Part shown: positions 1,858 through 60,022 of the stretch, one piece after another
How positions within the stretch are numbered: position 1 is the stretch's first letter
Layout: each line of letters opens with the position of its first letter
From: an uncultured delta proteobacterium
GTDB taxonomy: Bacteria; Desulfobacterota; SM23-61
Reading direction: 5' to 3'
DNA length: 64,000 bases
NCBI GenBank assembly: GCA_963712535.1
Contig: CAVQIK010000012.1
Coordinates: forward strand, 88,135 to 152,134
The notes under the pieces: generated by a model
Told to the model about the DNA's origin: nothing
The model's input: only the letters and a program-made list of their open reading frames with translations
Database searches by the model: none
Program-made: the position numbers and the translations under genes

Positions 1858-2931
1858 ATGGCTCTATTTTGCTTTTTAACAGTCTTACTATTCCTTCCAG
1901 TTGTCGGCGGGTGTGATTTGCCATATTTTTCGCAGGCAATTGCCGGCCACTTTCGGATAATGGCTTCTAGAGTGCCCATCGAAGATGAACTTAAGGAAAC
2001 TCATTTGGATATTGACAACAAAAGTAAGTTATATTTGGTCCTGGAGGTGCGTTCTTTCGCTAGTACACAGTTAGGCTTGCCGAATAATAAAAGCTACACA
2101 ATGTATTCAGACATTAATCAGCAATACGTTGGTTGGAACGTTTATGCTACCCCACATTTTTCCTTGGAACCGATAAAATGGTGCTTCCCCATAGCGGGCT
2201 GCATTGTTTATCGTGGCTATTTTTCAAGAGGAGAAGCACTTCAGTTTGCGGAGGATCTGGCAAAAAAGAACTGTGATGTCTTTGTTGGGCCATTTGATGG
2301 TTACTCTACATTGGGTTGGTACGATGATCCCGTGCTGAGCTCTCAATTGCGATTGAATCCAACTCGGCTTGCTGCACTAGTTATTCACGAGTTGGCACAC
2401 CAACAGTACTATTTATCCGATGATTCCCGGTTTAGTGAAGCTTTTGCAGTTACCGTTGAACGGGCCGGCGTCTTGCAATGGTTGAAATCAAAGAAAAGGG
2501 ATGACCTTATTCTTGAAGCTTTAAGGATGTGGGACGAACAAGACCTAACGATTAGGAAACTTCTTGAGGCTCGAAATCAACTGATAGATCTTTACCGCAG
2601 CGGGTTGGATCCAAATTCTTTAGAGAAGAAGAAGAACGCGCTATTTCAGGCCCTTAAGAAGGATCTGGATGCCACTAGTTGCGCCGGGATAACGCTTCCA
2701 AATACGAATGGTGAAAGCTGTGAATATAATAATGCATATTTAGTCACGATCGATACCTACTATTCTCTTGTGCCAGTATTCCAAAGTATATTAAATCAGC
2801 TGGGTGGTAACCTCCCACAATTCTACGAAAAAGTAAAGAGACTCGGAAACTTATCAGGCGTTGAACGGCAGAACGAAATCGAATCCTTGCAAAAAGCAAT
2901 TAGAGACAAGGAGAGTACTCCGAAGTTGTAA
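1858..2931 (+). CDS. putative zinc aminopeptidase lipoprotein (COG4324 / DUF2265-like)
   Basis: Signal peptide with lipobox (LFLPVVGGC). HELAH (HExxH) zinc motif. Overall pattern recalled from the predicted-aminopeptidase family. The gene sits in a visibly AT-rich stretch. Confidence 0.6.
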   Translation: MALFCFLTVLLFLPVVGGCDLPYFSQAIAGHFRIMASRVPIEDELKETHLDIDNKSKLYLVLEVRSFASTQLGLPNNKSYTMYSDINQQYVGWNVYATPHFSLEPIKWCFPIAGCIVYRGYFSRGEALQFAEDLAKKNCDVFVGPFDGYSTLGWYDDPVLSSQLRLNPTRLAALVIHELAHQQYYLSDDSRFSEAFAVTVERAGVLQWLKSKKRDDLILEALRMWDEQDLTIRKLLEARNQLIDLYRSGLDPNSLEKKKNALFQALKKDLDATSCAGITLPNTNGESCEYNNAYLVTIDTYYSLVPVFQSILNQLGGNLPQFYEKVKRLGNLSGVERQNEIESLQKAIRDKESTPKL

Positions 2932-2944
2932 AAGAACAAAATGA

Positions 2945-2966
2945 GGAGCACAGAACAATCTGCTCC
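2945..2966 (-). terminator. hairpin followed by a T-rich run when read on the minus strand
   Basis: GGAGCA-10 nt-TGCTCC. The minus-strand continuation is TCATTTTGTTCTTTT. No intact minus-strand gene lies upstream of it, only the dctM relic at 3269..3295. Confidence 0.25.
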
Positions 2967-3312
2967 GGAAAACGCGGAAGAGCCGTTTCTCCCTTCGATG
3001 CTCGCCTTTATGGTGTCGCACCCCTGAGAACCACCGAGGCCGGCACGAGGACTTTCCTGACGTTCCGCCTGCATTCCTCCATTCTTTCCTCTATTCCCGC
3101 ACTGAGGGTTTCATTTCCGACCTGCTCCCACGCACCCGGAAGGCGCGGAATAGAACCGTACCCTTGGTAGGTAAACAGGGAGAGGACCCTTTGCTCCGCA
3201 ATTAAACCCGTCGCAGATTTTCGCCTCGAAGAAGTCCCGCCGTTGGCTTTGATTTCTCGCGGAGTCCAACGCCCGAGCACGAGCTTGGGAAGGTAAGGAG
3301 GAAAAATTACGG

Positions 3313-3374
3313 TTGACAAGATATGGGCGACTTGCTATAAATCGCATCGTGAGCTTTCAATTCACATTGTGAAC
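3313..3374 (+). promoter_or_regulatory. sigma70-type promoter plus palindromic candidate operator upstream of the IclR gene
   Basis: TTGACA (3313-3318), 17-nt spacer, TATAAA (3336-3341). Near-perfect palindrome TTCACATTGTGAA at 3361-3373, about 20 nt before ATG 3394. Confidence 0.5.
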
Positions 3375-3393
3375 CCACCAGAGCATCCGGTCC

Positions 3394-4164
3394 ATGGTCA
3401 ACGGGATTAAATCAACCCTCAAATCCTTAAAAGTTCTGGAACTCTTTACCCTCGAGAAAAGGGAATGGAGCATTCAGGAAATGACGGAAGCGCTGGGGTA
3501 CCATAAAAGTTCCATCCAGCGCATCGTTTCGACCCTTGAGCGCGAGAGCTTTTTGAAGCGCGTCCAGTCCAGCCGGGCGATTTACCGCTTGGGTCCGCAG
3601 ATTCTCTTCCTGGGCGGCATTGCCGATATGAGCACGGATCTCAGGTCGATCGCCCGGCCGGTCATGGCCAGGTTGGTGGACCGGGTCCGGGAAACTTCCT
3701 ACCTGTGCACCCTCGAAGGAAATCAATGTCTTTACATTGAAAAAGTGGAGTCCTCCCAGCCCATTCAGATCGTTCACGGCATCGGCAAGAGGAATCCTCT
3801 GCACTGCACGGGGGTCGGCAAAGTCTTATTGAGCGGCATGACGGAAAAGGAGATCAGGAAAACCGTTTCCGCCAATGGCCTGAAAGGCTTTACTCCCCAT
3901 ACGATCACGAATGTGGATTCTTTGCTGGATGAAATCGAACGGGTGAGGAAAAAAGGGGTCGCCCATGATTTTGAGGAGCTTGACGTGGGCGTGAAATGCG
4001 TTGCCGCTCCGGTTCACAATCACACCGGCAGGGTCGTCGCGGCGGTCAGTGTCTCCGGCCCGGCTCAACGCTTTACCCCCGAAGCTCTTGCCCGCTTCGA
4101 AAAAGAAGTGAAGACGGCCGCCAGAGCCATATCCCGGGAATTGGGCTTTCTCAGCCGCAGATGA
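3394..4164 (+). CDS. IclR-family transcriptional regulator
   Basis: N-terminal wHTH (LKVLELF...WSIQEMTEALGYHKSSIQRIVSTLE) plus a C-terminal IclR effector domain of typical 256-aa length. Confidence 0.9.
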   Translation: MVNGIKSTLKSLKVLELFTLEKREWSIQEMTEALGYHKSSIQRIVSTLERESFLKRVQSSRAIYRLGPQILFLGGIADMSTDLRSIARPVMARLVDRVRETSYLCTLEGNQCLYIEKVESSQPIQIVHGIGKRNPLHCTGVGKVLLSGMTEKEIRKTVSANGLKGFTPHTITNVDSLLDEIERVRKKGVAHDFEELDVGVKCVAAPVHNHTGRVVAAVSVSGPAQRFTPEALARFEKEVKTAARAISRELGFLSRR

Positions 4165-4190
4165 ATTGAAGCGTTCAAGGAAGAATTTTT

Positions 4191-5885
4191 ATGTCTTCGG
4201 AATCAAACCCTCGCGGAAAGCTTCGAAGCTCGGTGATCACCCGGGGCCTGGACAGGGCCACCCATCGCTCCCTTTTTTACTCCATGGGGTGGGACCGTGC
4301 CCATCTGGAAAAGCCGCTCGTCGCGGTGGTGAATTCCTTCAACGAGCTCATGCCCGGGCATATTCATCTGAATTCCCTCGCCCAGGCGGTCAAATTGGGG
4401 ATCGCCGAAGCCGGAGGCACTCCCCTGGAGTTCCCCAGCATCGCGGTTTGCGACGGCATCGCCACGGGACATGCGGGGATGAAGATGCCCATGATCAGCC
4501 GGGAGCTGATCGCGGACTCCATCGAACTCATGATCACCGCTCACGGCCTGGATGCCATGGTCCTCCTGAGCAATTGCGATAAGGTGACGCCGGGCATGCT
4601 CATGGCTGCCGGGCGGTTGAATATCCCTGCCATAGTCCTCACCGGCGGCCCAATGGAGGCCGGCTGTTTTCGCGGAAGGCGCATCTGCTACACCGACCTG
4701 ATCGAGGCGGAAGGAAGAGTTGAAAGAGGAGAAATGACTTCGCAGGACCTGGCCGAAATGGAAAAAGCGGCGAATCCCGGCCCGGGGGCCTGCGCCCTCA
4801 TGGGAACGGCCAACTGCATGAACATCCTCACCGAAGCCCTCGGCATGAGCCTGACCGACGGGGCCCTGACCCCGGCGACATATGGCGCACGTATCGCTCT
4901 GGGTCGGGAGAGCGGCCGACGGATCATGGATCTGCACCGGAAAAACATTCTCCCGCGGGACATCCTGACTTCTGCCGCCTTTGAAAACGCCATTGCCGTT
5001 GACATGGCCGTCGGCGGGTCCACCAACAGCTGCCTGCACCTGCCCGCCATCGCCAGGGAAGTGGGACTGGAGATCTCCATGGAAGTCTTTTCGAGAATCT
5101 CGGAAAAAACTCCCCACCTGACCCTGCTGAAACCGGCCGGTCGATATTTTCCAAGAGATTTTTATGAAGCCGGCGGAGTCGCCGCTCTCATGAACGAGAT
5201 GTCCCGGAACGGCTTGATTCATCGGGAATGCATCACGGTGACCGGAAATGCCGTGGGAGAGAATATCGCCGGGCGCGAAATCCTCGACGAGGATGTGATC
5301 CACCGGGTAACCAATCCCCTGGACCCCAAGGGAGGGATTTCCTTTCTGTACGGCTCTCTGGCCCCCGAAGGAGCGGTGGTGAAACGATCGGCAGTAGCCC
5401 CGGAGATGATGGTCCATGGCGGGCCGGCCCGCGTATTTGACCGGGAAGAAGACGCGCTGAAGGCCATCTTTGGGGGGAAGATCAAACCCGGGGAAGTGGT
5501 CGTGATCCGCTATGAAGGACCCAAAGGGGGGCCGGGCATGAGGGAGCAACTGCTGCCGACCTCCGCTCTCATCGGCATGGGACTGGGTAAGAGCGTCGCT
5601 TTGGTGACCGACGGCCGGTTTTCGGGGGCCACCCAGGGCGCCTGTGTAGGCCATGTAACCCCGGAAGCATTCCTCGGCGGCCCGATCGCCCTGGTTCAGG
5701 AAGGCGACAGGATCGAAATCGATATTCCCAAGGGAACGATTCATTTGGGCGTCCCGGCGGACCTGCTGGAGAAGAGAAAGAAGGACTGGAAGCTCCCGCC
5801 CGATGTTCATTTGCCCAAGGGGTCTCTGCTGGAACGGTACCGGCGGTCGGTAGGTTCGGCGATGCGAGGCTGCGTCCTGGAGTAA
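4191..5885 (+). CDS. IlvD/Edd-family dehydratase (dihydroxy-acid or sugar-acid dehydratase)
   Basis: Family strings [52 protein letters not shown]. 564 aa. AAGGAAG sits upstream of the ATG. Confidence 0.9.
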
Positions 5886-7196: not shown

Positions 7197-8183
7197 ATGA
7201 AGAGAACCGTAACCGTAGTTCTGGCCACCCTGTTGGTATTTACCATCGCCGCGTCCGCTTCGGCGCAGTACAAGGCGAGCATGAAGCTCGCGTCGGTTAC
7301 GCCCCCGGACCACTTTTACAATGTGGGGGCGAGGAAGTTCGCCGAACTGATCAAGGAGAGGACGGGCGGCCGCATCGACATCAAGGTCTATCCCGCCGGG
7401 CAGCTCGGCAAGGGCGAACGGGAGATCACCGAGGCCGTCCAGCAGGGAGCCGTGGAAATGCTCATCACCTCCACGGGGCCCATGGGCGGGTTCAGTCCCT
7501 CCATCAATATCCTTGATTTTCCCTTCCTTTTCCGGGATTTCAATCATGTGGACCTGGTCATGGACGGCGCGATCGGCCGCAAATTGCTCAACGACTTTGA
7601 GAAGGCCAACATTAAAGCCCTGGCGTTCTGGGAAAACGGGTTCCGGCATCTGACCAATAACAAGAGGGCCATCAAGAAAGCCGAGGACGGCAAGGGGCTG
7701 AAAATCCGCACCATGGAAAATAAGGTGCACCTGGCCGCCTGGAAGGCCGCGGGCTACAACCCGACTCCCATGGCCTGGGGCGAGGTGTTCACCGCCCTCC
7801 AGCAGGGCGTCATTGACGGCCAGGAAAACCCGATCGCCATCATCGCCAGCAACAAACTCTGGGACGCCGGCCAGAAGTTCTTCTCGTTTACCGCCCACGT
7901 TTACTCCCCGTCCCCTTTACTCATGACCAAGAAGAAATTTGACGGCATGCCCAAGGAAGACCAGGAACTGTTCCTCAAAACGGCCCTGGAAGTGGCCAAG
8001 TTCCAGCGGAAAATCAACCGCGACGCGGAAGAGAACAGTATGAAGGAAATGGCGTCGAAAGGCGTGACCGTGGTTCGCGACGTGGACCGGGAAAGCTTCA
8101 AGAAGGCCATGGCTCCGGTCTTCGATCAATTCAGCAGCCAGTTCCCCCGGCCCGAGATTGAATCCATCATGAACGCCAAGTAG
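7197..8183 (+). CDS. dctP: TRAP transporter substrate-binding protein (DctP family)
   Basis: Signal peptide (VVLATLLVFTIAASASA). DctP-family strings (YPAGQLG, FPFLF, WENGFRHLTN, VIDGQENP). AAGGAGGA at 7183-7190 favours ATG 7197 (alternatively 7191) over the listed 7101. Confidence 0.9.
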   Translation: MKRTVTVVLATLLVFTIAASASAQYKASMKLASVTPPDHFYNVGARKFAELIKERTGGRIDIKVYPAGQLGKGEREITEAVQQGAVEMLITSTGPMGGFSPSINILDFPFLFRDFNHVDLVMDGAIGRKLLNDFEKANIKALAFWENGFRHLTNNKRAIKKAEDGKGLKIRTMENKVHLAAWKAAGYNPTPMAWGEVFTALQQGVIDGQENPIAIIASNKLWDAGQKFFSFTAHVYSPSPLLMTKKKFDGMPKEDQELFLKTALEVAKFQRKINRDAEENSMKEMASKGVTVVRDVDRESFKKAMAPVFDQFSSQFPRPEIESIMNAK

Positions 8184-8240
8184 CTTCGGAGGGGCGCCCG
8201 CGCCAAACAGGCGTGTGCGCCCTTTTCAGCGGAGATCCGG

Positions 8241-8733
8241 ATGGGTGCGCTGGGAGCTTTCAACCGTTTCCTGATGAAGATCGGGAGCTGGGGGACGATC
8301 TTCTTCGTGGCCGTCATGGCCGTCGTTATTCCTTACGAGGTCATCGGACGGTACGTATTCCAGAAGATGAGCATCTGGTCGGGCGAGGTCTCCACCTATT
8401 CTCTCGCCTGGGCCTCCATGTTGGGCAGCGCCGTGGGATTGAAAAAAGGGTATCAGGTCGCCATGACCTCGGTCGTGGAATCGGTGCCCCCCGCCCTGGC
8501 CGGAATTCTGAAATGGGGAGCCTATCTTTTTACTCTGTTCTTTTTCGGGGCCATGTTCTATTTCGGCCTCTACCAGACGATTTATAACGTAAACCAGACC
8601 TCACCTGCTATCGGCTTGGTGATGAGCATCCCCTACGCTTCTCTCCCCACGGGGTTCTTTATCATGTTCTTTCTTACCCTGGAGGAGTTTTTTCGCCTTT
8701 CTCAATCCGGCTACGAAAAGAGAAAGACCATGA
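8241..8733 (+). CDS. dctQ: TRAP transporter small permease (DctQ family); 3' end uncertain
   Basis: About 160 aa with 4 TM segments and a typical IPYEVIGRYVF start. As sequenced, the frame runs straight into the dctM start (KT-MIIFLAAF). One more T in the T6 run near 8690 would end it at TGA 8731-8733, overlapping ATG 8730 (the usual ATGA coupling). Confidence 0.75.
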
Positions 8734-10007
8734 TCATTTTCCTGGCTGCCTTCATCATCCTCTGTGCATCTCCGCTCCCATTACCGTCGCCCTCGGCGGC
8801 TGTTCCCTGATATACGCGCTGGTCGGCGGCACGGTTCCCATAACGACCCTGATCCAGACCACCTTCGGCGGGTTGACCAGTTTCCCCCTCCTGGCCATCC
8901 CCCTGTTCATGCTGGCCGGCAATCTCATGAACGAAGGCGGCCTTACGCCCGACCTGGTGAACTTCGCCCGGCACGCTCCTCGGGCATATCCGGGGCGGCC
9001 TGGGCCATGCCACCATCCTGGCCTGCGCCATTTTTGCGGCCATCTCCGGCGCCGCTGTGGCCACCGCCGTGGCCATAGGGGTGGTGATGCTCCCGGCCAT
9101 GAAGAAGGCCGGGTACGACGACGGAGTGGCGGCGGCCCTGACCTGTACGGCCGCCTGTCTGGGTCCCATCATACCCCCCAGCATCCCCTTCATCATCTAC
9201 GGCGTGGCCGCCAATGTCTCGATTGCGGCCCTGTTCATCGGCGGAGTGCTTCCGGGGCTGGTGCTCGCGGCAGCGTTGATGGTGTACATGCATCTCGTCG
9301 CCACTAAACACGATTACCCCCGGGATCCAAGGACACCGTTGAAAGAAATCCTGTTCGCCGGCGGCAAGGCTCTGCCCGCTCTCTTCATGCCGGTCCTCAT
9401 CATGGGCGGTATCCTGAGCGGCATGTTTACCCCCACCGAGGCGGCAGGGGTCACGGTGGTCTATTCAGCCCTGGTGGGAGCTTTTTACTACCGGCGATTG
9501 AACTTCAAAAACTTGCCCCAGGTGCTGCTGAAGTCCGGACTGGAGTCGGGCATGGTGATGCTGCTCATCGCCATGTCGGAACCTTTTGCGTGGTTTGTCG
9601 CCGTGGACCAGATCCCCCAGCTCATCATCGAATGGATTTCGCACGTGACCACTTCGCCCTACGTGATCCTGCTTTTAATCAATGTTTTCCTGCTTCTTTT
9701 AGGAATCCCGATGGAAACCGCCCCGGCGCTGGTCATCGTAACCCCGATCCTGGTTCCCATCGCCGCCGCCGTCGGCATCGACCCGGTGCACCTGGGCATC
9801 GTGGTCTGCCTGAATCTCGTTCTGGGCCTGATCACGCCGCCGGTAGGGGCCGTGCTCTTTGCGGTCTGCGGCGTGACCGGCATGTCCCTCGACCGCCTGA
9901 GCAGGTCCATCTGGCCGCCATTTTTTGTGGCCCTGGGGGTGCTGGCCGTCGTGACCTATGTCCCCTGGCTGACCACGTATCTGCCCAAACTTGTCCTCGG
10001 GCGTTAG
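8730..10007 (+). pseudogene. dctM: TRAP transporter large permease (DctM family), interrupted by two compensating frameshifts
   Basis: The DctM sequence is continuous only across three frames: MIIFLAAFIILCA (frame of 8730); SAPITVALGGCSLIYALVGG...LTSFPLLAIPLFMLAGNLMNEGG...NFARH (frame 2, from about 8771); LLGHIRGGLGHATILACAIFAAISGAAVATAVAIG... to the stop at 10007. A base is missing near 8769-8770 and an extra base lies near 8975. Confidence 0.85.
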
Positions 10008-10766
10008 AGGCTCAATCTACCTCAACGATGGGGATTTCCCTTCAGGCGTCAAACATCTGGGGACGATCTCAGAAACTCTCGTTTCAGGAGATCGAAATAT
10101 CTGGAATCCTTCTGATCTCTAAGGGAGCATATCCCATTGAGCTATTGCTGGAATAATTAACCATACTGCCTGAACTCTGTGGGTCGGGCTCGGATGGCTT
10201 CTTTTCAAATTGCTGGGTAGAGACTCTGACTCTGATCAAATACCATATGAACTCTTACCAAATGAACTCTTCGATGTTTGGGGAAACAGATACAGAAGTT
10301 GTGGACCATACATCCTTCACTTGGAAGGATTTCGGGGCATCGGCATGCTCCATTTCTTCCTGTACTATTGGTTTTCCCTTTTAGCTCTTGAATGCAAGAT
10401 TTCAATCGAAAATCATCAATGTCTCTCCTGGAAGTCCGCATTTCATTCGGGAATTCCGGTGAAATTCATCTCTTGACTCTTCTTCAATAAGATAGTAATT
10501 TTCAGTAAATTTGTTATTTTCAATGGCTTCTCTTCATCGAACCTTCTAAATACTTACGAAAGCTTTTTCCATAGACAAATTACAATTTTGCGATTCACCT
10601 GGCAAGATTCTCCGGATGTTTACTCGTCAGGATATAACATCAGTTGTGCACGTCAGGAGAATATATAAAATGCCCCCAAATGCCAGACCGAGAATGCCAG
10701 AGGCGCCTTTCAGGAAATGGGAAGGGATTATTGGCTGAATAGAACCAGAAAACTGAAGGGAGCACT

Positions 10767-11219
10767 TTGGATGCCATGAGTCACATATCTTCAGGATCTT
10801 CTTTGAAGAAAGGAAGATATGGCCGAGGTGAATCTGAAAAGCTGAGTATTGAATCGGTGCACCAACTGTATGAATCGAACCAGCAGCTTATCTATGTTGC
10901 GGATCGGAAAGTTTCGGCAGGTGTGCTGTTTGCAGTCCTTTCAACCATTTTCTACCTCTTAGCCATCATCCCAAGGATTTCGGAAAAGGCCTCTGAGAGC
11001 CTGCTTCATTACAGGGGTATTTTGGCCATACCGCGAGAGGAGTACGTGTCAAAAATGCGCGCAGGTTGTGGAGAAGATTTGATCAAAGATTACTTGGAAA
11101 CGATTTATGCCCTCTCCTCCATCGAGATGAGAAAGAATCGGTATCTTCGTGTAGGCTCCATACTTTTGATGATTTCCATCGTTCTATTGGGTTTGTCCTT
11201 CATGCTGCATAACCTGTAA
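10767..11219 (+). CDS. small 2-TM membrane protein whose architecture resembles Pycsar-type TM effectors (DUF5706-like); family assignment tentative
   Basis: 150 aa: soluble N-terminus, VADRKVSAGVLFAVLSTIFYLLAIIP (ADxK followed by TM1), a middle helical region, then KNRYLRVGSILLMISIVLLGLSFML (C-terminal TM). AAGGGAG precedes the TTG/ATG start. Ends 20-44 nt before the cyclase gene. Confidence 0.45.
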   Translation: MDAMSHISSGSSLKKGRYGRGESEKLSIESVHQLYESNQQLIYVADRKVSAGVLFAVLSTIFYLLAIIPRISEKASESLLHYRGILAIPREEYVSKMRAGCGEDLIKDYLETIYALSSIEMRKNRYLRVGSILLMISIVLLGLSFMLHNL

Positions 11220-11262
11220 ATCCTCCGCAGGAATTCGGGTGGATCAACGACGGAGAGCTCTT

Positions 11263-14200
11263 ATGAGATGCCCAAAATGCCGGTTCGAAAATCCTGATAC
11301 ATCAAAATTCTGTGGAGAGTGCGGAGCAAAGCTGGAAAAGGTTTGCCCGGAATGCAACGCAGCGAACCCTCTCCAATTCAAATTTTGTGGAGAATGCGGA
11401 CAGGAATTATCTGGCCCAAGGCCGAGTCCAAAAGACCCTCTCTTCGACCCAAGAAGCTGGCTAAGATCCAAAAATATCTTCCCGGCGGACTAACAGAGAA
11501 GATTTTGGCCCAAAAAGGAAAGATCGAAGGCGAGCGCAAGCAGGTCACGGTGATGTTCACGGACATGGAGGGGTTTACTCCGTTGGTGGAGAACCTCGGG
11601 CCGGAGCAAGCCTACGCCATTATGGACCAAGTTTATGAAATTTTGATCCAGAAAGTCCATGCGTTTGAGGGTACGGTGAACGAGATGACCGGGGATGGAA
11701 TTATGGCCCTGTTCGGGGCTCCCATTGCATTGGAGGATGCCCCTCAAAGAGCGATCCGGTCGGGTATTGGCGATCCACCAGGAGATCGCTCGGTTCAGTG
11801 AACGTCTGAGCAAAGAAAAGGGTATTCCTCCGATTCGGATGCGCATTGGCATCCACACGGGCCCGGTCGTGGTCGGGACATTGGGCAGCGACCTGCGGGT
11901 TGAGTTCAAAGCGGTTGGGGATACAGTAAATTTAGCTTCACGGCTACAGAACCTTGCGGAAGCGGGCACAATATATATTTCGGGAGAAACTTTTAAAATT
12001 ACCGAGGGCCTGTTTCGTTTCGAGTCACTTGGGGAGCGGAAGGTGAAGGGCCGGGAAGAGCCGGTGAGGGTTTACCAGGTGATCGCTCCCAGCTCAAGCA
12101 GGACCCGTTTTGACGTGAGCGCGGAACGGGGGCTGACCCCCCTTGTGGGCCGGTCACGCGAGATGGAGCTTCTTGTGGACGGCTTGGGGCGGGCGAAGGA
12201 AGGGAGGGGGCAGGCTTTCTCTATCATCGGAGAGGCGGGGGTCGGAAAATCCCGCCTTCTGTACGAGTTTCGAAAGGCGGTTGCCAATGACAATATAACC
12301 TTCCTGGAGGGGAAATGTCTCTCCTATGGGCGAGGCGCCTCATACCATCCGATTGCCGACATCTTGAAAGGCGCCTTCGAGATTCAGGAACGGGATGGAG
12401 AGGCCAAAATCCGGGAGAGAATCCAGGATGGTCTCAAATTTATGAAAATGGATCCTTCTTCGACCATGCCCTATGTGTTGGAAATCCTGGGCGTGAAAGG
12501 GAGCGGGATCGAAAAGATATCCCTGAGCCCGGAAGGGAAGAAGGATCGGGTTAATGACACATTGAAGAAGATACTGATCAAGAGCTCGCAGTTTCGTCCC
12601 CTGTTCGTCGCTATTGAAGACCTGCATTGGGCGGATAAGAGCACGGAGGATGTCCTGAAATACTTACTGGACGGGATTCCTGCGGCGAGGGTTCTACTGG
12701 TCGTCACCTACCGCCCGGAGTTTGTGCATACCTGGGGGGGCAAATCATACCACAACCAGCTTACGTTCAACCGGCTGTCCAACCGGGAGACCCTGGCCAT
12801 GGCCGCCAGCCTGCTGGGAACGGTCCAGGTCGACAAGGAAATTGAAGAACTCATCCTGGAGAGGACAGAGGGCGTTCCCTTCTTTATCGAGGAGTTTATC
12901 CGATCCTTGAGGGACCTGAACATTATTCAAAAACAAGAAAGCAAGTATCGCCTGGCCAAGAACATTCAGGAGGTGAAGATCCCCTCCACGATCCAGGACA
13001 TGATCATGGCCCGGGTGGATGCGCTGCCCCCGAACGCAAAGGAGCTTCTCCAAACGGGATCCGTCATCGAACGGGAGTTCAGCCACGAGCTGATTAAGTG
13101 CCGAATTAATCTACGAGCGGGGTATTTTTCCTCAATCAACCTACATTTTCAAGCATGCCCTAACCCGGGAGGTTGTCTACGATTCCCTTGTCGCTGTGAA
13201 AAAGAAAAGGCTTCACGCCGAAATCGGGAAAGCCATTGAGGAAATGTTCAAAGATCATCTGTCGGATTTTTTCGAAGCCCTCGCCCATCACTATCTATTA
13301 GCGGAGAATTATGAGAAAGCGGCCGAGTATTCGAGGCTGGCTTCGCGAAAGGCGGAGAAAGGCGTATCTTTATTCCGCGCGATTTCTTTTGCGGAGCAGA
13401 ATATTGCCTGTCTTGAAAAGCTGCCGGTCACGGAGGAATTAGAGAGAAGGCGTATCGATGCCCGAACACGTCTTGGTCTCTATTTCATCCAGATGAATCA
13501 ACAAAAAGCCAAGGAAGCGATCGACCCCATTCTCGACCTGGCGCTCAAATTGAATTACAGGAAAAGACTGTGTCAGATTTATACGATTCTGGGCGCCTAC
13601 CATTCCATCGTAACCGAGGATATGTCCGAGGCCATTAAGACTCTCGAACATGCTTTAAAAGTAGCGGAGGAAACCAAAGATCTGTTGAGCCAGGTGCTGG
13701 CCGGACACTATTATGCAGGTTGTCTGGCAGGCCTTTGTCAATTCGAAAAGTCTGCAGAATATTTCCGGAGATCCTACGAAATCAATTTAGCGGCAGGAAG
13801 CCTGTGGGGCGGTTCCGCGGTGCTCTCCACTCTTGCAGTCGGCTGCCTTTTACCCCAGGGGAAAATCGAAGAGGGATTTCGGACAACCGAACAAGCCATC
13901 GAGCTCGCAGAAAAAAGCGGCGATGTTTTTTCCAGGGGAACGTCGTATGTGGGCCATGGAATATCGAACTTCTACAAAGGATATCTGCAGGAAGCCGAAG
14001 TTCAGATGCAAAAGGGATTTCAGTTCGGAAACCATATTCCTTTTTATTGGTATGGACTCGCTCAGGGGATTTTGGGATGCGTGTATTTTGCAATGGGGGA
14101 AATGAAAAAATCAAAAAGGTCGCTGGCTGAAGCGATTTCTACCTTTGGCGATCATGGCCTGCAACCTTCTCTTGCCACTTTCTTCAAGGCTGCCTTAATG

Positions 14201-14566
14201 AACGTGAAGATCGCTAATCAGGAAATGGACATCGATTTGGGTTTTCTCACCTCCATTCCGCCCACTTATGGCTTTTCACTGTCGGGTTTGTTTTTTCAGT
14301 TTATCGGAGACATTTATCTCCAAATGGGTGCCGAGCACCTGACCGAGGCAGAGCGTTGGTATCGCAAAGGCATCGAAGAAAATGAGGAGAAAGGAACAAA
14401 ACCGTGGCTGGGTCATTCCCTGGCTGCCTACGCCAGGCTGATGCATCGCCAAGGGGATCGCGCCAAAGCCCGGGAGAATCTCGGGAAGGCAATAGAAATT
14501 ATGAAACAATGCGGGGCCGATGGATGGGTGGCGAAATATGAGAAAGAGTTGGCCTCCATTTCATGA
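11263..14566 (+). pseudogene. double zinc-ribbon / class III adenylate-guanylate cyclase / AAA_16-type STAND ATPase / TPR protein, interrupted by three frame changes
   Basis: Zinc ribbons: CPKC..CGEC..CPEC..CGEC. Cyclase motifs: [50 protein letters not shown]-loop: [13 protein letters not shown]-terminal helical TPR-like repeats run to 14566. Frame changes lie near 11450 (base missing), 11761-11763 (extra G) and 13095-13102 (possibly also a short deletion). Listed ORF pieces are 11239.., 11319.., 11695.. and 13196... Confidence 0.85.
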
Positions 14567-14867: not shown

Positions 14868-16173
14868 TCACTTCTGGCCTTTAAGAATCGGGAATGTGTT
14901 CGCCCCCTGCGGCATGATCGTGACTTTCGGATTCTTCGTCCTGCACTTCTCGTAGGCCAGCTGTAACGCTTCGTCGATGCTGGACGCGGGTGTAAACCCG
15001 GTCTTTCGAACAAAATCGAAATTTTCTTTCCGGGTCAGGAGAATAAAAGGCCCCTTGCTGTTGCATTCCAGCTCCTTGAGGGCGACCCAACCGGCGATGG
15101 TGAAATTTTCCCGCAGCGCTTTCTCCATTTCCAGGAGCGATGGATACCGGAACCATTCGAAGAACTCCGGCGGCTCGGTGATGTCCGGGCACTCCGCAAG
15201 GATAATCGCGACCCCGCCTTTTTTCATGGCGTAGTATGCGTTATCCATGGTCTTGCCGGTCTGATACAGGTTGATGTCCTTCGGATAACCGCCGGCCGTG
15301 GCGATCACGATGTCGGCTTCCTCGCGGATTTCCACGCCGAAGATTTCCTCCACCCGCTCGACCGCATCCAGCCACGCCGAAACCCAGTTCCCCGCGAAAA
15401 CCCCGGCAATCTGCCCCTCCAGGTTCGGGACCGTGTTGACGATGAAATCGGGCTGGAGGAAGCCGGCAATTTCCATCATGTCCTCGTGGACCTCGTTCCC
15501 CCGGGTCCGCCCGGACGAGGCGCGGGGATTCGAGCCCGACCCTACGGTGGGCCCCATCGCCCAGAGATGGTTCTGTCGAATCGTCTGGACGGAGGAAAGC
15601 CCGGGAAGGACGCTCTTTCTCCCACCGCCGTAGCCGGCCATGTAATGGTAGATGACGCCGCCGGTCAGGATCAGCTTATCCGCCTCGACCGCGAGGCGGT
15701 TCACCGACACTTCCGTGCCCCGGCTTGTTCTCCCCAGAGGGACCATGTTTTTCGTGTCCCAGCAATCGTGATTGAGGACTCGCACGCGGTGGCAAACCTC
15801 TCTCCCGCAAAGTTCCACGAATTCATCTTCGGTGTTCAATCGATGGGCGCCGACGACGATGAGAATGGTGATATTGCCGTCGGGGATTCCGGCTTCGTTG
15901 AGCGTCTCGATGAGAACCGGCAGCACCTGATCATTCCTCTGCCACCCCCGGGTGATGTCGCTGACCGTGACCAGGACCTTCTCGCCGGGCTTGACGATCT
16001 CGCGCAGAGGAGGCGCATCAACCGGGTGATCCAGGGCCTGGCGGTAGGACTTTCAGAAGATCCGGAAGAGCAGGAAAGTTTCTTCCCCGCAGTTCGTGCA
16101 AGAGCTGCTCCTGGGGGATTTTGAACGAGACTACCCCCTGGCCGTATTTCAGCTGAAAACTGCGCAAGGCCAT
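14868..16173 (-). pseudogene. LarA-like nickel-dependent 2-hydroxyacid racemase/epimerase family (DUF2088 N-domain), one frameshift
   Basis: ORF 14868..15926 carries LarA-like strings (VVGAHR, HYMAGYGGG, PKDINLYQ). The missing N-terminus (MALRSFQLKYGQGVVSFKIP... then YRQALDHPVDAPPLREIVKPGEKVLVTVSDITRG) is found upstream in two frames. ATG at 16173 follows GGGAGG. Extra base near 16047-16048. Confidence 0.8.
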
Positions 16174-48478: not shown

Positions 48479-49202
48479 ATGAAAGCGGGAGAGACTGGGC
48501 TTACCCAGAAACTGGAGAAGTTTTCTCGAAAAGGGGGTGCGGACCTTTTCGGCGTGGCCGACCTGGGTTTGGCCGTCGATTTCATCGCTTCTCAATGCCC
48601 TTCCTGGGTCGGAGCTTTCCCCCGGGCCGTTTCGCTGGGTATGCAGGTCAACGCTGGAATCGCCGAGCAGCACGATCCCAACGAGCCGCGCCATCTCAGC
48701 ATGTACTGGTTCCATGTGTACGAGGTCGTCTCCCCGGCGCTGAACTTCCTGGCTTACGATACGGCCCGCTGGCTCACCGCCAAGGGCTTCAAGGCTTTCC
48801 CGATCCCGGCCTCCATGCCTTATGATCCCGGCAAAGCTCATGGGCGTCTTCTCCCACAAGCTCGGCGCCCACCTCGCCGGCCTGGGATGGATCGGAAAGA
48901 GCTGTCTTCTCCTCACCGACCGGTTCGGCCCCCGGGTCCGCTTTGTCTCCGTGCTCACCGACGCTCCCCTGGAAACGGGCTCCCCCCTGGACCGGCCCTG
49001 CGGAAAATGCCGCGCCTGCGTAGACGCTTGCCCGGCGAAAGCGTTCACCGGAGCCGAATTTCACCCGGAAGAGCCGCGCGAGGTCCGGTTCGACGTTTTC
49101 AAATGCAGCGAATTCCGTAAAGGGCACCCCTGCGGGGTTTGCGTCTCCACCTGCCCCCGGGGAAAACGGTCCCGCAACTCCGGAAAAGGGGTTTCCGGAT
49201 AG
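48479..49202 (+). pseudogene. QueG-like / reductive-dehalogenase-related 4Fe-4S protein, one frameshift
   Basis: N-part ORF 48479.. ends in nonsense. It continues in another frame as AKLMGVFSHKLGAHLAGLGWIGKSCLLLT...CGKCRACVDACP...CGVCVSTCP. Extra base near 48829. Confidence 0.55.
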
Positions 49203-56420: not shown

Positions 56421-56769
56421 TTCTTAGTCTCCAGCGTCCACACAATTCCGGACTGATTAGAAAATGAAAAAAATTGTCATGCGCGAAACCTTAAGTTTCA
56501 TGGAGCGGGGTCTGCCATTTGACGTAATATTCCAATCCAGTATTAAACGTCTCTTCTAATTCCCATTTAACCGGATTGCAGAGAAATGAACTTTTATGCA
56601 GGTTCTTTCCATTTCATCTCTAATTGCGGCGGGGCCAAAATCGGTCGGTCGCAAAATACACTGTCTCACAATGTTAAATACATTCTCTCCCGTATTGGGA
56701 ACTCAGGTTGTCTTCCCTAGGATAGATTCTGAGTTTCCTTTCTTAAATCCAATTCAGGGAAGATTCGCA

Positions 56770-58195
56770 ATGAGAAAGAGAAAATCCTCGGCCGACCTCC
56801 TTCCATCCCTGCTCGCCTCTCTCTCAATCCTCGCCGTCCTTTCGGCGTGCGGAGGCGGAGGCGGCGACGGGTCCCAGTCGGTCCCGCCGCCTCCTGCGAC
56901 GGGAACCGTGAGCGTTACCCTCTCTGACCCGCCCGTCTGCCTCGCACCGAATGGTCCATTCCAAAATGTTTGGGTGACTCTCACCCGAGTGCGGGCCCAC
57001 GCATCCGGCACGGCGGGCCCGAACGACAGCGGCTGGGTGGACCTGGTGGATCTTCGCAGCAACCCCGCCCAGATCGATCTGCTAAGCCTTCAGTCCCCGG
57101 CCTGCATCCTGTCCCAGCTCGGCTCGAGGAGCGGGATCCCACCCGGGTCAATACCAGCAGATCCGTCTGCACCTGCTGAGCAACTCTCCGGATACGACCG
57201 TCGCAGTTCCCGCCGCCAACCTGTGCAGCGGGAGCGGGTTTAATTGCGTGATTTTGGCCAGTGGGGGAATTCAAACCTTGCTCTTGACCAGCGAAGCAGA
57301 GTCGGGGATCAAGATCCCCTCCGGGCAGATCTCCGGGGGAGCTTTCACGGTAGCGGCCGGCCAGACCACGTTTCTCAATATCGATTTCGATGCCTGTTCA
57401 TCTCTAATCCAGCAGGGGAACGGGCAATTCCGCCTGAAGCCGGTGCTCCACGCGGGGGCGATCTCCCTGAACAGCAATTTCATCAGCGGGGCGGTGGTAG
57501 ACAGCTCGACCCGGGGCCCTGTCCAGAACGCGACTGTATTCATCGAGCAGAGGGACCCGAATAACCCCAGTCTGGACCGCGTCATCGCCCGGACTACGAC
57601 GGGTCCGGCCGGCGAGTTCATCGCTTGTCCCCTGCCGCCCGGGAATTACGACGTGGTTGTTTCCGGCAGGACCTTTCTCTATACCTTCAATCCTACGGCA
57701 ACCCTTCAGGTGCCCGTTGGAACGCTTATGGGAAACATTCCCCTGATGCCGCAGGCCGGAGAACTCCCTGCCACCGTCTCGGGAGAAATCGTCACGACCA
57801 ATGCCGCAGGAGCGGCGACGACCGCCGACCTCGAGATTTCAGCGCTGCAGCCCGCCGATTCTTTGCTGGTCACCATCCCGCCGCTGGGGAATTCTATATC
57901 CCAGGTGACTTCGGAAGGCGGCAGGGCAACCTATACTCTGGTTTTGCCGGCAGCGAATCCACTGGTCGGAATTTTCAGCGCAACGCCCGCGACCGTCTAT
58001 TCGCCCGCCGTTGCGGGTCCGGGGGTTTACCAGCTGAATGTCCAGGCTTTTAATCTCATGTCTTCCTCTTTAAACCCCGGCTCGCCGAACTGCAGCCCGC
58101 CCAGCCTCCCGGTCCCCTTTGACGCCGGAAACCAGCTATTCGTTACCCCCGGCGCAACCCTGACCAGGGATTTTACATTTACCGGCTGCCAGTAA
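56770..58195 (+). pseudogene. DUF4382-family lipoprotein, one frameshift
   Basis: Lipobox (LSILAVLSAC). VSVTLSDPP...VWVTLTRVRAH...WVDL...PAQIDLLSL, then in the next frame GQYQQIRLHLLSN...SGIKIPSG...LNIDFDACSS...FRLKPV, matching the DUF4382 pattern. Extra G in the GGG run at about 57145-57147. Confidence 0.7.
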
Positions 58196-58503: not shown

Positions 58504-60022
58504 CTACCCGCGGTCGAGCTTCCTCAATTCTTTTTTCAACACCTTCCCCACGAGGCTCTTGGGCAGAGCCTTCATGAAGGCCACCTCGGCGGGCAGCAGA
58601 AACGGGGTGAGCCGGGTCCGGCAGTAATCGATGATCTCCGCCTCCGTAGGCGTTCTCGCCGGGCTTTCAGGACGACGAATGCCTTGATGTTCTCCCCGTA
58701 CACTTCGTCCTTGATCCCGATCACCGCCGCCTCGGATACTTTGGGGTGCTTGAAGAGGACTTCCTCGATGGTCCGGGGTGAGATGTTCTCCCCTGCCTTG
58801 ATGATCAGATCCTTCTTGCGGTCCGTGATCCAGAAGTAGCCGTCCTCATCGACGTAGCCGATGTCGCCGGTGTGGAGCCATCCGCCCCTGATCGCCTTCG
58901 GCGGTCTCCTCCGGCTTGTTCCAGTACCCTTTCATGAGCATGGGCCCGCGGATCACGATCTCACCCTCTTTGCGGATGGGAAGGGGGTTCCCCTCGTTGT
59001 CCACGATCCTCATCTCCGTCCCTTTCATCGGCAGGCCGATGGACCCGACCTTCTTCACCCCGTCCGGCGGGTTGACCGAATTGTTCGCCCCCGCCTCGGT
59101 GAGGCCCCATCCCTCGATGATCTCGAACCCGAAAGTCTCCTTGAACCGGTTGAACGTTTCCAGCGCCAGGGGCGCGGAGCCGCAGAACCAGTACTTCATC
59201 GAGCTCAGGTCGAATTTTTTCGGGTCGGGGAAAAGGAGCATGAAGACGTACATGGTCGGGAACTCCGGCCAGTACGTCGGCCCGGTACTTCTGGATCGCG
59301 GTGAAGATGCCCTTCCACGTTGAAGGAACTGAGCAGAACGGCCCCTCCGGTCCGGCGGAAGAGCCCCTGGTTCATGCTCGCGATGCCGTAGGAATGGCAG
59401 AGAGGGAGGACAAAGATCGAAACCAGGCCGTCCGGAAGGGGGACTGAGTCGTACTGCATCCGGGCGTTCGAGTACAGGCTGAGATGGGTGTGCATCACCC
59501 CTTTGGGGCGGCCGGTCGTCCCGGCGGTGTAGATCAGCGCGGCTAGATCGTCGTCGGCCGTATCCTCCACTTCTGTCTCCTCCGGACTTTCGCCGACGAT
59601 CTTCGGATACGAGAGGAACCCGCGCGGAGCGTCGGCATCCGTGAGAATCACGGTTTCCAGGCTGGGAGACTTCGCCAGCCCGGGAGGATTTTGGGGAGAA
59701 AGGCCGAGTTGCTGATGAGCACCTTCGCGCCCGAATCCTGGTAGATGTAGGCTGTCTCCTCCTCCCCGACGAGGTAGTTGATCGGCACGACCACGCCCCC
59801 GAGCCTCCAGACGGCCGAGAACCCCTGGAGCACCTCGGGACAGTTGGGGATCTGGAGGATGACCCGGTCGCCCCGCTTGACCCCCAGGTCCTTGAGGGTC
59901 CTGGCCAGCCTGCGGCTTGCGCTCAGCATCTCAACGTTGGTGAACTCCTTCCCCTCATAAATCAGGCTGACCTGCTCCCCCTGCTGTCTCACCCTCTCTT
60001 CGGCGATCCCGGCGATATTCAT
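58504..60022 (-). pseudogene. AMP-dependent acyl-CoA synthetase/ligase, heavily frameshifted
   Basis: All family motifs are present but spread over frames: IYTAGTTGRPKGVMHTH, GWGLTE, GGWLHTGDIGYVDEDGYFWITDRKKDLIIKAGENISP, LPKSLVGKVLKKEL. Frame changes near 59678-59684, 59308-59314, 59255-59262, 58893-58900 and 58645-58668 (probably two there). Confidence 0.9.

Follow-up and report, generated by a model that had tools for sequence, protein, structure and literature searches.

A damaged PycTM-family effector gene beside a giant sensor-fused cyclase gene in an uncultured delta proteobacterium: a probable relic of a conserved cassette

The window analysed here is a stretch of 64,000 nucleotides (nt) from an uncultured delta proteobacterium (GTDB lineage Bacteria; Desulfobacterota; SM23-61; NCBI GenBank assembly GCA_963712535.1, contig CAVQIK010000012.1, positions 88,135 to 152,134 of the forward strand), and the element in question is a pair of neighbouring genes on its forward strand, a small gene for a PycTM-family membrane effector and, downstream of it, a large gene in which a double zinc ribbon (DZR), a class III nucleotidyl cyclase, an AAA_16 NTPase of the STAND type and a TPR region follow one another. 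Both genes are damaged in the sequence as assembled (Table 1), and both were interpreted by comparison with the homologous loci of relatives, which carry L-numbers (L004, L037, etc.) below. On its left the pair is bordered by a TRAP transporter and on its right by a LarA-like gene (Pfam DctM, Lar_N and LarA_C), and its GC content (0.40-0.47 from 10000 to 11250, 0.48-0.58 within the large gene) is set off from that of the flanks (0.56-0.66), so that the AT-richer insert described in an earlier sequence-only reading of this DNA is indeed present (0.40-0.58 against 0.56-0.66).

Table 1. Features of the two-gene cassette and of the spacer that precedes it, in window coordinates.
Feature	Position	Strand	Basis
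AT-rich spacer from the TRAP permease gene to the cassette, no recognisable gene	10008..10766	.	GC 0.40-0.43
PycTM-family effector gene, damaged, 150-amino-acid open frame	10767..11219	+	Pfam PF18967, PADLOC PycTM, A1/A2 alignments, hydropathy
Homologous start ATG (10819-10821) behind AAGGAAG, out of frame, ending at TGA 10843-10845	10819..10845	+	DNA alignment with L037, frame translations
Site at which 90 nt are deleted in frame (30 residues, LLLINAVLISLSATW... plus loop), with loss of the near-invariant first hydrophobic helix	10919..10920	+	Clean 90-nt gap relative to L037
First piece of the large gene, comprising a double zinc ribbon with four CxxC pairs plus a linker	11263..11451	+	Pfam DZR 4.2e-14; tblastn of intact homologues, frame 1
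Frameshift 1, one base lost (GAC CCA [A]AG AAG)	11451..11452	+	Comparison with second copy in L005; repaired translation reads through
Class III nucleotidyl cyclase domain	11500..12090	+	Pfam Guanylate_cyc PF00211, split in two halves: 3.8e-5 and 1.7e-16
Frameshift 2, one additional T within the cyclase domain	11765	+	blastn alignment with L005 7523-8596
AAA_16 (STAND, MalT-type) NTPase, Walker A GEAGVGKS, then helical/winged-helix part	12139..13098	+	Pfam AAA_16 3.9e-27
Junction of a 19-codon deletion and frame change (stray T 13099), winged-helix region	13098..13100	+	Homologue comparison
C-terminal TPR sensor region, single open frame to the stop	13100..14566	+	Pfam TPR_12 2.4e-16, TPR_MalT 8.6e-12

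The small open reading frame (ORF; 10767-11219) matches the Pfam family PF18967 (PycTM) with 50 bits (E = 4.4e-13; gathering cutoff 27.2 bits), together with three PADLOC PycTM models and several models of CBASS 2TM effectors, which bears out the earlier assignment of its 150-amino-acid (aa) product to the Pycsar transmembrane (TM) effectors. Its PADLOC PycTM score is 2.9e-12, compared with 7e-21 across the full profile for an intact homologue. The homologues, which were aligned in two sets (A1, n = 21; A2, n = 42), are about 164 aa long and every one of them carries PF18967. Hydropathy profiles of intact relatives contain three hydrophobic segments (~33-51, 61-79 and 143-161), whilst the window protein contains two, and the AlphaFold2 model of the closest intact PycTM (pLDDT 69, pTM 0.54) is all-helical with a three-helix layout; a Foldseek search of this model against the PDB returned nothing better than E = 0.6. 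Both an ADRK and a KNRYL motif are found in the window protein, although the helix which the ADxK motif enters, numbered TM1 in the sequence-only reading, is the second helix of the family, since a loss of 30 residues has removed the first. A profile of the subfamily retrieves 694 representative clusters at E <= 1e-3 and just 10 at E <= 1e-30, and we therefore regard the subfamily as a minor branch within a broader family whose members measure 160-180 aa.

The large gene extends from a homologous start ATG at 11263 to a stop at 14566 and is divided among four overlapping ORF pieces (frames 1, 3, 1 and 2) spanning 11239-14566, against which intact homologues align by tblastn at 11263-11460 (frame 1), 11448-11771 (frame 3), 11764-13098 (frame 1) and 13103-14560 (frame 2). 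Pfam matches along these pieces reproduce the previously proposed order of zinc ribbon, class III cyclase, AAA_16/STAND module and TPR repeats, and the features by which a STAND NTPase is recognised (a P-loop AAA_16 domain with Walker A and B motifs, a helical/winged-helix module and a repeat sensor) are all present, with a further partial match to NCBIfam TIGR03903 (5.6e-69). The TPR region is the most divergent part between homologues, at a median identity of 18%. After repair of the frame, all six canonical cyclase residues are retained in the window sequence (both metal-binding Asp, the Asn, the Arg and the base-selecting pair Glu/Lys), as the intact-looking motifs had suggested, and the D, D, N and R are likewise present in 23 homologues.

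The closest solved structures to the cyclase domain are those of Pseudomonas aeruginosa CyaB (3r5g, 6.6e-31) and Synechocystis Cya2 (2w01, 8e-30), and it matches PADLOC PycC profiles over no more than 44% (PDLC00734) and 66% (PDLC02367) of their length. Its base-selecting positions are occupied by Glu/Lys, as opposed to Lys/Thr in CyaB and Glu/Gly in Cya2. Glu at the first of these positions is a feature of guanylate cyclases, and no residue evidence in the window cyclase points to the pyrimidine cyclic nucleotides cCMP or cUMP; its likeness to CyaB and Cya2 and the Glu at the base-selecting position suggest that the product is probably a purine 3',5'-cyclic mononucleotide. The E/K pair is kept in 105 of the 120 closest homologues of the window cyclase, and drift in a pseudogene, which we considered as the source of the Lys at the second specificity position, was ruled out by this conservation of the Lys. 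Cyclases linked to PycTM form three classes according to the base-selecting pair, namely E/K, Q/T and K/(G, Q, K or E), of which the Q/T class resembles the non-canonical Gln/Asn pair of Mycobacterium tuberculosis Rv0386. Within the tandem arrays of L006, L025 and L012 the giant-cyclase paralogues of one array differ in their pair (E/K, Q/T and K/G), and such differences could give rise to different nucleotide products at one locus.

The window copy differs from its relatives by five lesions, two in the effector gene and three in the cyclase gene, and two of the five are large. A 4-nt gap near 10831, relative to the closest intact relative (L037), shifts the homologous ATG of the effector gene out of frame, and the 150-aa frame as assembled has a non-homologous N-terminus of 25 aa and two hydrophobic helices in place of the three of the family. 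Between A51 and G52 of the window protein 30 residues (LLLINAVLISFSATW plus loop) are absent which are present in 21/21 homologues of alignment A1 and in 42/42 of alignment A2. This gap does not represent a natural two-helix variant, an explanation that we ruled out as the stretch is found in every homologue and remoter relatives, too, match from end to end. With two membrane segments rather than three, the soluble middle of the window effector would therefore face the wrong side of the membrane. In the cyclase gene all three frame breaks noted in the sequence-only reading are present, although the third is not a simple slip but the loss of 19 codons, and the two effector lesions had been missed. 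The 19 missing residues read RVTALPEEPFLTHLSSLKD in the closest homologue; every homologue has RVTxLPEKELLSxLSxLKD at this site, the stretch being seen in 12/12 of the homologue sequences listed, and apart from this loss there is no insertion or deletion of 3 aa or more relative to L034 across 1,100 residues.

The ratio of nonsynonymous to synonymous substitution rates (dN/dS) is 0.043 for the effector against L037 and 0.09 for the cyclase part against its nearest relatives, values which are rough as dS is saturated. Because the ratios lie at 0.04-0.09 against the nearest relatives, both genes appear to have been under purifying selection until recently, and since all catalytic residues are also kept, any inactivation would be recent. 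The 90-nt and ~57-nt losses are of a kind atypical of base-calling error and are probably real. Judged from its sequence, the window cassette is most likely no longer functional and probably represents a relic, comprising an effector without its first membrane helix and start codon and a cyclase with two frameshifts and a 19-codon loss. Death of the locus as a pseudogene, which the sequence-only reading had named as a finding that would speak against its proposal, is hence partly borne out: this copy looks inactivated, with five lesions in the assembled sequence.

Frame breaks are also found elsewhere in the window, where they were identified by ORF inspection and Pfam matches (a codon-usage frame tracker was dropped as too noisy). 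The TRAP DctM gene (8740-10007, + strand) is broken twice (~8765 and ~8965) and the LarA-like gene (14868-16173, - strand) once (~16040), an AMP-binding ligase (58846-60022, - strand) lies in three pieces that match consecutive parts of the Pfam profile, and an Fe-S protein gene (48479-49202, + strand) is split in two. At 56596-58195 (+ strand), two successive ORFs (215 and 315 aa) look like a single gene of the secreted or lipoprotein type with an interruption at 57243-57248. The window therefore represents either an error-prone assembly or a pseudogene-rich genome. Breaks of the same type are found in the cassette genes of related contigs whose names (contig_N) are of long-read style (L004/L013 and L005), and with one-base breaks this common in the window and in related contigs, error and mutation are not separable for the one-base insertions and deletions. 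One of these related loci, L005, includes the closest DNA relative of the window large gene (7523-8654, 77% identity), a truncated second copy with a frameshift of its own at another site, as well as a full giant-cyclase copy beside PycTM (1870-5241) which carries an in-frame stop (ESL*DLF).

Homologues of the small protein were collected as 26 non-redundant PycTM loci, via exact-protein look-ups, a scan of species-representative genomes and a metagenome scan, with neighbouring genes mapped by tblastn; two loci stop at a contig edge, leaving 24 that are informative for gene adjacency. A DZR-cyclase-AAA_16-TPR gene directly adjoins PycTM in 22 of the 24, on the same strand and at gaps of 30-100 nt, so that the adjacency of the two gene families which the sequence-only reading had put forward for checking is conserved. 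In 13 of these loci PycTM leads, which is also the order of the window; six have the cyclase in front, and in three PycTM has cyclases on both sides. The adjacency persists for PycTM proteins down to ~50% identity, across three cyclase subclasses and in both gene orders. The four loci of the 26 without an adjacent giant cyclase are the two at contig edges, L024, and L032, in which a broken PycTM gene stands amid toxin-antitoxin genes. In L024 a gene for a GAF-domain histidine kinase (884-2431) occupies the place of the cyclase downstream of PycTM, and the two ORFs overlap by ~40 nt.

More than one giant cyclase gene is present in eleven loci, mostly as 2-4 tandem paralogues, some of the extra copies being truncated or cut by the end of the contig. 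Median pairwise identity between the paralogues of these arrays falls from 57% in the zinc ribbon to 49% in the cyclase, 39% in the NTPase and 18% in the TPR region. Further genes recur at the PycTM loci: an Apyc1-like/PDEase_II phosphodiesterase of the metallo-beta-lactamase (MBL) fold in seven (L004, L010, L012, L014, L021, L022 and L025), a cyclic mononucleotide (cNMP)-binding protein in seven, its L010 version of 149 aa matching the nucleotide-binding domain of PycTIR (PADLOC), and a second MBL/ODP protein in three. In the seven loci with a host-encoded Apyc1-like/class II phosphodiesterase its gene (e.g. L010 1842-2591, minus strand) immediately adjoins PycTM. A tblastn search across the window found none of the cNMP-binding and MBL accessory genes. 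The PycTM subfamily was found in only 3 of 185,579 species representatives (a Syntrophorhabdus sp., an uncultured deltaproteobacterium and Deltaproteobacteria RBG_13_43_22). We take the cassette to be one that is conserved in anaerobic Thermodesulfobacteriota-type bacteria, with PycTM and the giant cyclase or cyclases probably co-transcribed.

The cassette shares with Pycsar (a PycC cyclase with a PycTM effector; Tal et al. 2021, summarised in PMC11224242 and PMC13069673) its effector family (Pfam and PADLOC), a similar effector size and helix layout, and the two-gene logic of a cyclase next to an effector. PycC enzymes of clades A-F are small and carry either a single cyclase domain or two (PMC11224242, PMC13069673), whereas the window cyclase is one domain of a protein of ~1,100-1,120 aa with DZR, AAA_16 and TPR parts and is closest to CyaB and Cya2; in addition, the window-type loci lie outside defence islands in the ~10 neighbourhoods surveyed and do not show there the enrichment beside known defence systems through which the Pycsar family came to light. 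A remoter PycTM relative in Ca. Methanoperedens (L038) directly follows a stand-alone cyclase of 239 aa, which is the canonical Pycsar layout, and this cyclase covers 82% of the PADLOC PycC profile PDLC02367 at 7e-32. The simplest reading of these comparisons would be a partner swap, in which this PycTM lineage gave up a small PycC and took on instead a CyaB/Cya2-type cyclase fused to a sensor.

Several described systems resemble the cassette in other respects. The MalT/AAA_16 cyclase-ATPases (M. tuberculosis Rv0386, Rv1358 and Rv2488c, and the TIGR03903 kinase/cyclase fusion) have the same succession of class III cyclase, AAA_16 and helical/TPR region, whereas the mycobacterial proteins have a LuxR-type HTH at the end and neither an N-terminal double zinc ribbon nor a paired PycTM gene. 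Avs and bacterial NLR-like STAND proteins share the order of effector domain, STAND NTPase and variable repeat sensor, as well as diversified tandem paralogues; they differ from the cassette in that the window NTPase is of the AAA_16/MalT type and matches no Avs/NACHT model, and in that the output of Avs is a fused nuclease or protease whilst that of the cassette is proposed to be a diffusible nucleotide acting on a separate protein. The Avs-like sensor of the sequence-only reading is accordingly an analogy and not a membership. Phage Apyc1 and the host MBL class II phosphodiesterases have their counterpart in the Apyc1-like/PDEase_II genes beside PycTM in related loci, although tblastn found no such gene in the window; host homologues of Apyc1 have been suggested as possible regulators of Pycsar or other cNMP signalling (PMC9117128), a suggestion which the Apyc1-like genes adjoining PycTM fit.

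'Pucsar' has been described, in the abstract of a preprint of August 2026, as an offshoot of Pycsar in which cyclases make 3',5'-cGMP and effectors are of the TIR or TM type (bioRxiv 10.64898/2026.08.12.744502). The window has a TM effector and a cyclase whose Glu at the base-selecting position, as in the guanylate cyclase Cya2, would agree with a guanylate cyclase; its second specificity residue, Lys, is an unusual partner of Glu. Wording such as 'linked to STAND NTPase' and 'and TPR repeat' occurs in the preprint, which may already mention STAND/TPR-linked cyclases, and the statement of the sequence-only reading that it knew of no described system with this architecture is weakened accordingly. 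Cyclases go unmentioned in a 2026 survey of bacterial STAND receptors, and a 2020 paper on conflict systems describes cNMP cyclases in other architectures. The cassette points to Pycsar-type signalling in a conserved and apparently little-described form whose cyclase is fused to a sensor.

Taken together, we consider it reasonably probable that the window holds a degraded copy of a conserved cassette in which PycTM stands beside one or more giant DZR-cyclase-AAA_16 STAND-TPR sensor-cyclases, working by a mechanism whose steps we propose as follows. The hypervariable TPR/STAND part of the cyclase would bind a trigger and switch the NTPase, whereupon oligomerisation would pair two cyclase domains into a dimeric active site. 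A 3',5'-cyclic mononucleotide, probably a purine one, would then be made and would activate the three-helix PycTM, perturbing the membrane and leading to growth arrest or death. In the richer cassettes, the Apyc1-like phosphodiesterase and the small cNMP-binding protein may reset or buffer the signal. This retains much of the Pycsar-like logic with a STAND-fused cyclase proposed in the sequence-only reading, for which the effector family, the adjacency and the canonical relative in L038 all speak, whilst the affinity of the cyclase to CyaB and Cya2 and the one-way linkage to PycTM detract from it.

A number of observations weigh against this reading. The linkage runs in one direction, since the giant cyclase family comprises at least 7,994 clusters at E <= 1e-50, a lower bound, mostly without a PycTM neighbour, and PycTM is absent within 8 kb of the three closest intact giant cyclases on long contigs; one of these three is solitary, one shares an array with FIST, a response regulator and a further cyclase, and one belongs to a tandem pair among electron transfer flavoprotein (ETF)/acyl-CoA dehydrogenase genes. 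Being mostly unlinked, these cyclases clearly function without PycTM in most places. No PycC structure is among the best 60 structure matches of the window cyclase domain, and no Avs or other STAND defence model of PADLOC gave a match, be it to the window pieces, to the protein after repair or to any of three intact homologues. In a small sample of ~10 PycTM neighbourhoods there was no restriction, CRISPR or other known defence system, so that the defence-island setting which the sequence-only reading had put forward for checking was not found; these neighbourhoods contain toxin-antitoxin pairs (PIN/MazE, HEPN/MNT, BrnT and HicB) and one transposase, the PADLOC matches of the neighbours being otherwise generic (e.g. 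NifS resembling DndA). The flanks of L025 and L028 hold NifU/NifS, a radical SAM enzyme, a PAS kinase, a lytic transglycosylase and a tRNA synthetase, and relatives of the family were not found in the viral contigs of IMG/VR. Finally, one-base frame breaks occur in at least four other window genes, and part of the decay may hence be assembly error.

Much of this would be expected if the cassette served ordinary physiology, which we regard as a real possibility, though not the likelier case. The giant proteins would then be environmental-sensing cyclases, and PycTM would be one cNMP output, e.g. a cNMP-gated conductance, besides cNMP-binding proteins, GAF kinases and phosphodiesterases. The size of the cyclase family and its mostly PycTM-free contexts, including the FIST/cyclase/response regulator and ETF/acyl-CoA dehydrogenase arrays, accord with such a role, as do the cNMP-binding proteins and phosphodiesterases at PycTM loci, the histidine kinase that replaces the cyclase in L024, the housekeeping neighbours (NifU/NifS, tRNA synthetase and ABC transporters) and the lack of viral relatives in IMG/VR. 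MalT-clade cyclase-ATPases such as M. tuberculosis Rv0386 are, moreover, regarded as signalling enzymes. A survey paper in which these names occur is PMC2447327. Against a purely physiological role stand the patchy distribution among species representatives and a set of traits closer to conflict genes than to core signalling (the AT-rich accessory setting, the toxin-antitoxin and transposase neighbours, the repeated decay in the window, in L032 and in the second copy of L005, and the hypervariable sensor arrays). Furthermore, all members of the PycTM family that have been characterised are Pycsar effectors which kill the cell (PMC11224242), and a remoter relative belongs to a canonical Pycsar pair. 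From the cell-killing effector family, the patchy distribution, the AT-rich setting, the repeated decay and the steep fall in identity from cyclase to TPR (49% to 18%), a role in conflict or abortive infection appears somewhat more likely than ordinary physiology.

Two other explanations concern the window copy and the pairing itself. The locus might be intact in the living organism and all five lesions artefacts of assembly or sequencing, for which the pervasive one-base breaks (DctM twice, LarA, the ligase in three pieces and the Fe-S protein), the similar breaks in the contig_N-type contigs of L004/L013 and L005, the very low dN/dS and the complete set of catalytic residues can be cited; we consider this unlikely, given that the two large losses are clean, that the lost segments are universal in homologues (42/42 for the effector helix and 12/12 listed for the STAND segment), and that the collections contain no second assembly of the sequence, its protein cluster having a single member. 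Chance adjacency of two functionally unrelated genes is conceivable to the extent that the giant cyclase is so abundant in these genomes that some adjacency is expected, yet it is highly improbable in view of the 22 of 24 informative loci with same-strand neighbours at short gaps, in three cyclase subclasses and in both orders.

Returning to the degraded conserved cassette, a more far-reaching version of it can be put forward tentatively and with some doubt, namely that the intact relatives constitute a new class of cyclic-nucleotide immunity, in which arrays of diversified STAND-TPR receptor-cyclases feed one PycTM pore and the Apyc1-like phosphodiesterase and cNMP-binding buffer act as safety devices; the E/K, Q/T and K/G pairs might then encode distinct signals. 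To our knowledge, it is not known how the small PycC cyclase of canonical Pycsar detects infection, and a PycTM wired to a cyclase with an explicit STAND/TPR sensor, if this proposal is true, would offer a tractable model of the trigger step. It would likewise join STAND receptors and nucleotide second messengers, two large themes of prokaryotic immunity, and provide the Apyc1-like phosphodiesterases encoded by hosts with a function in the cell. If the cassette belongs to ordinary signalling instead, PycTM-type proteins would not be restricted to defence, which would affect how automated defence finders interpret PF18967 matches. The window copy itself is of lesser importance, as a probable relic that illustrates the rapid turnover of the cassette.

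Scans of the insert for Rfam families, tRNA genes, promoters, terminators and repeats gave nothing beyond chance, no flanking direct repeats, tRNA genes or integrase were found around it, and the spacer ORFs at 10210-10476 (+) and 10205-10441 (-) have no Pfam matches. The spacer also contains, at 10241-10270, a 15-nt unit twice in tandem (TACCATATGAACTCT / TACCAAATGAACTCT), with no suggested function. Among the loci without PycTM, L035 (1-15461; GCA_040960625.1) stands out for a run of at least four consecutive giant cyclase paralogues, accompanied by FIST, a cyclase of 594 aa and a response regulator.

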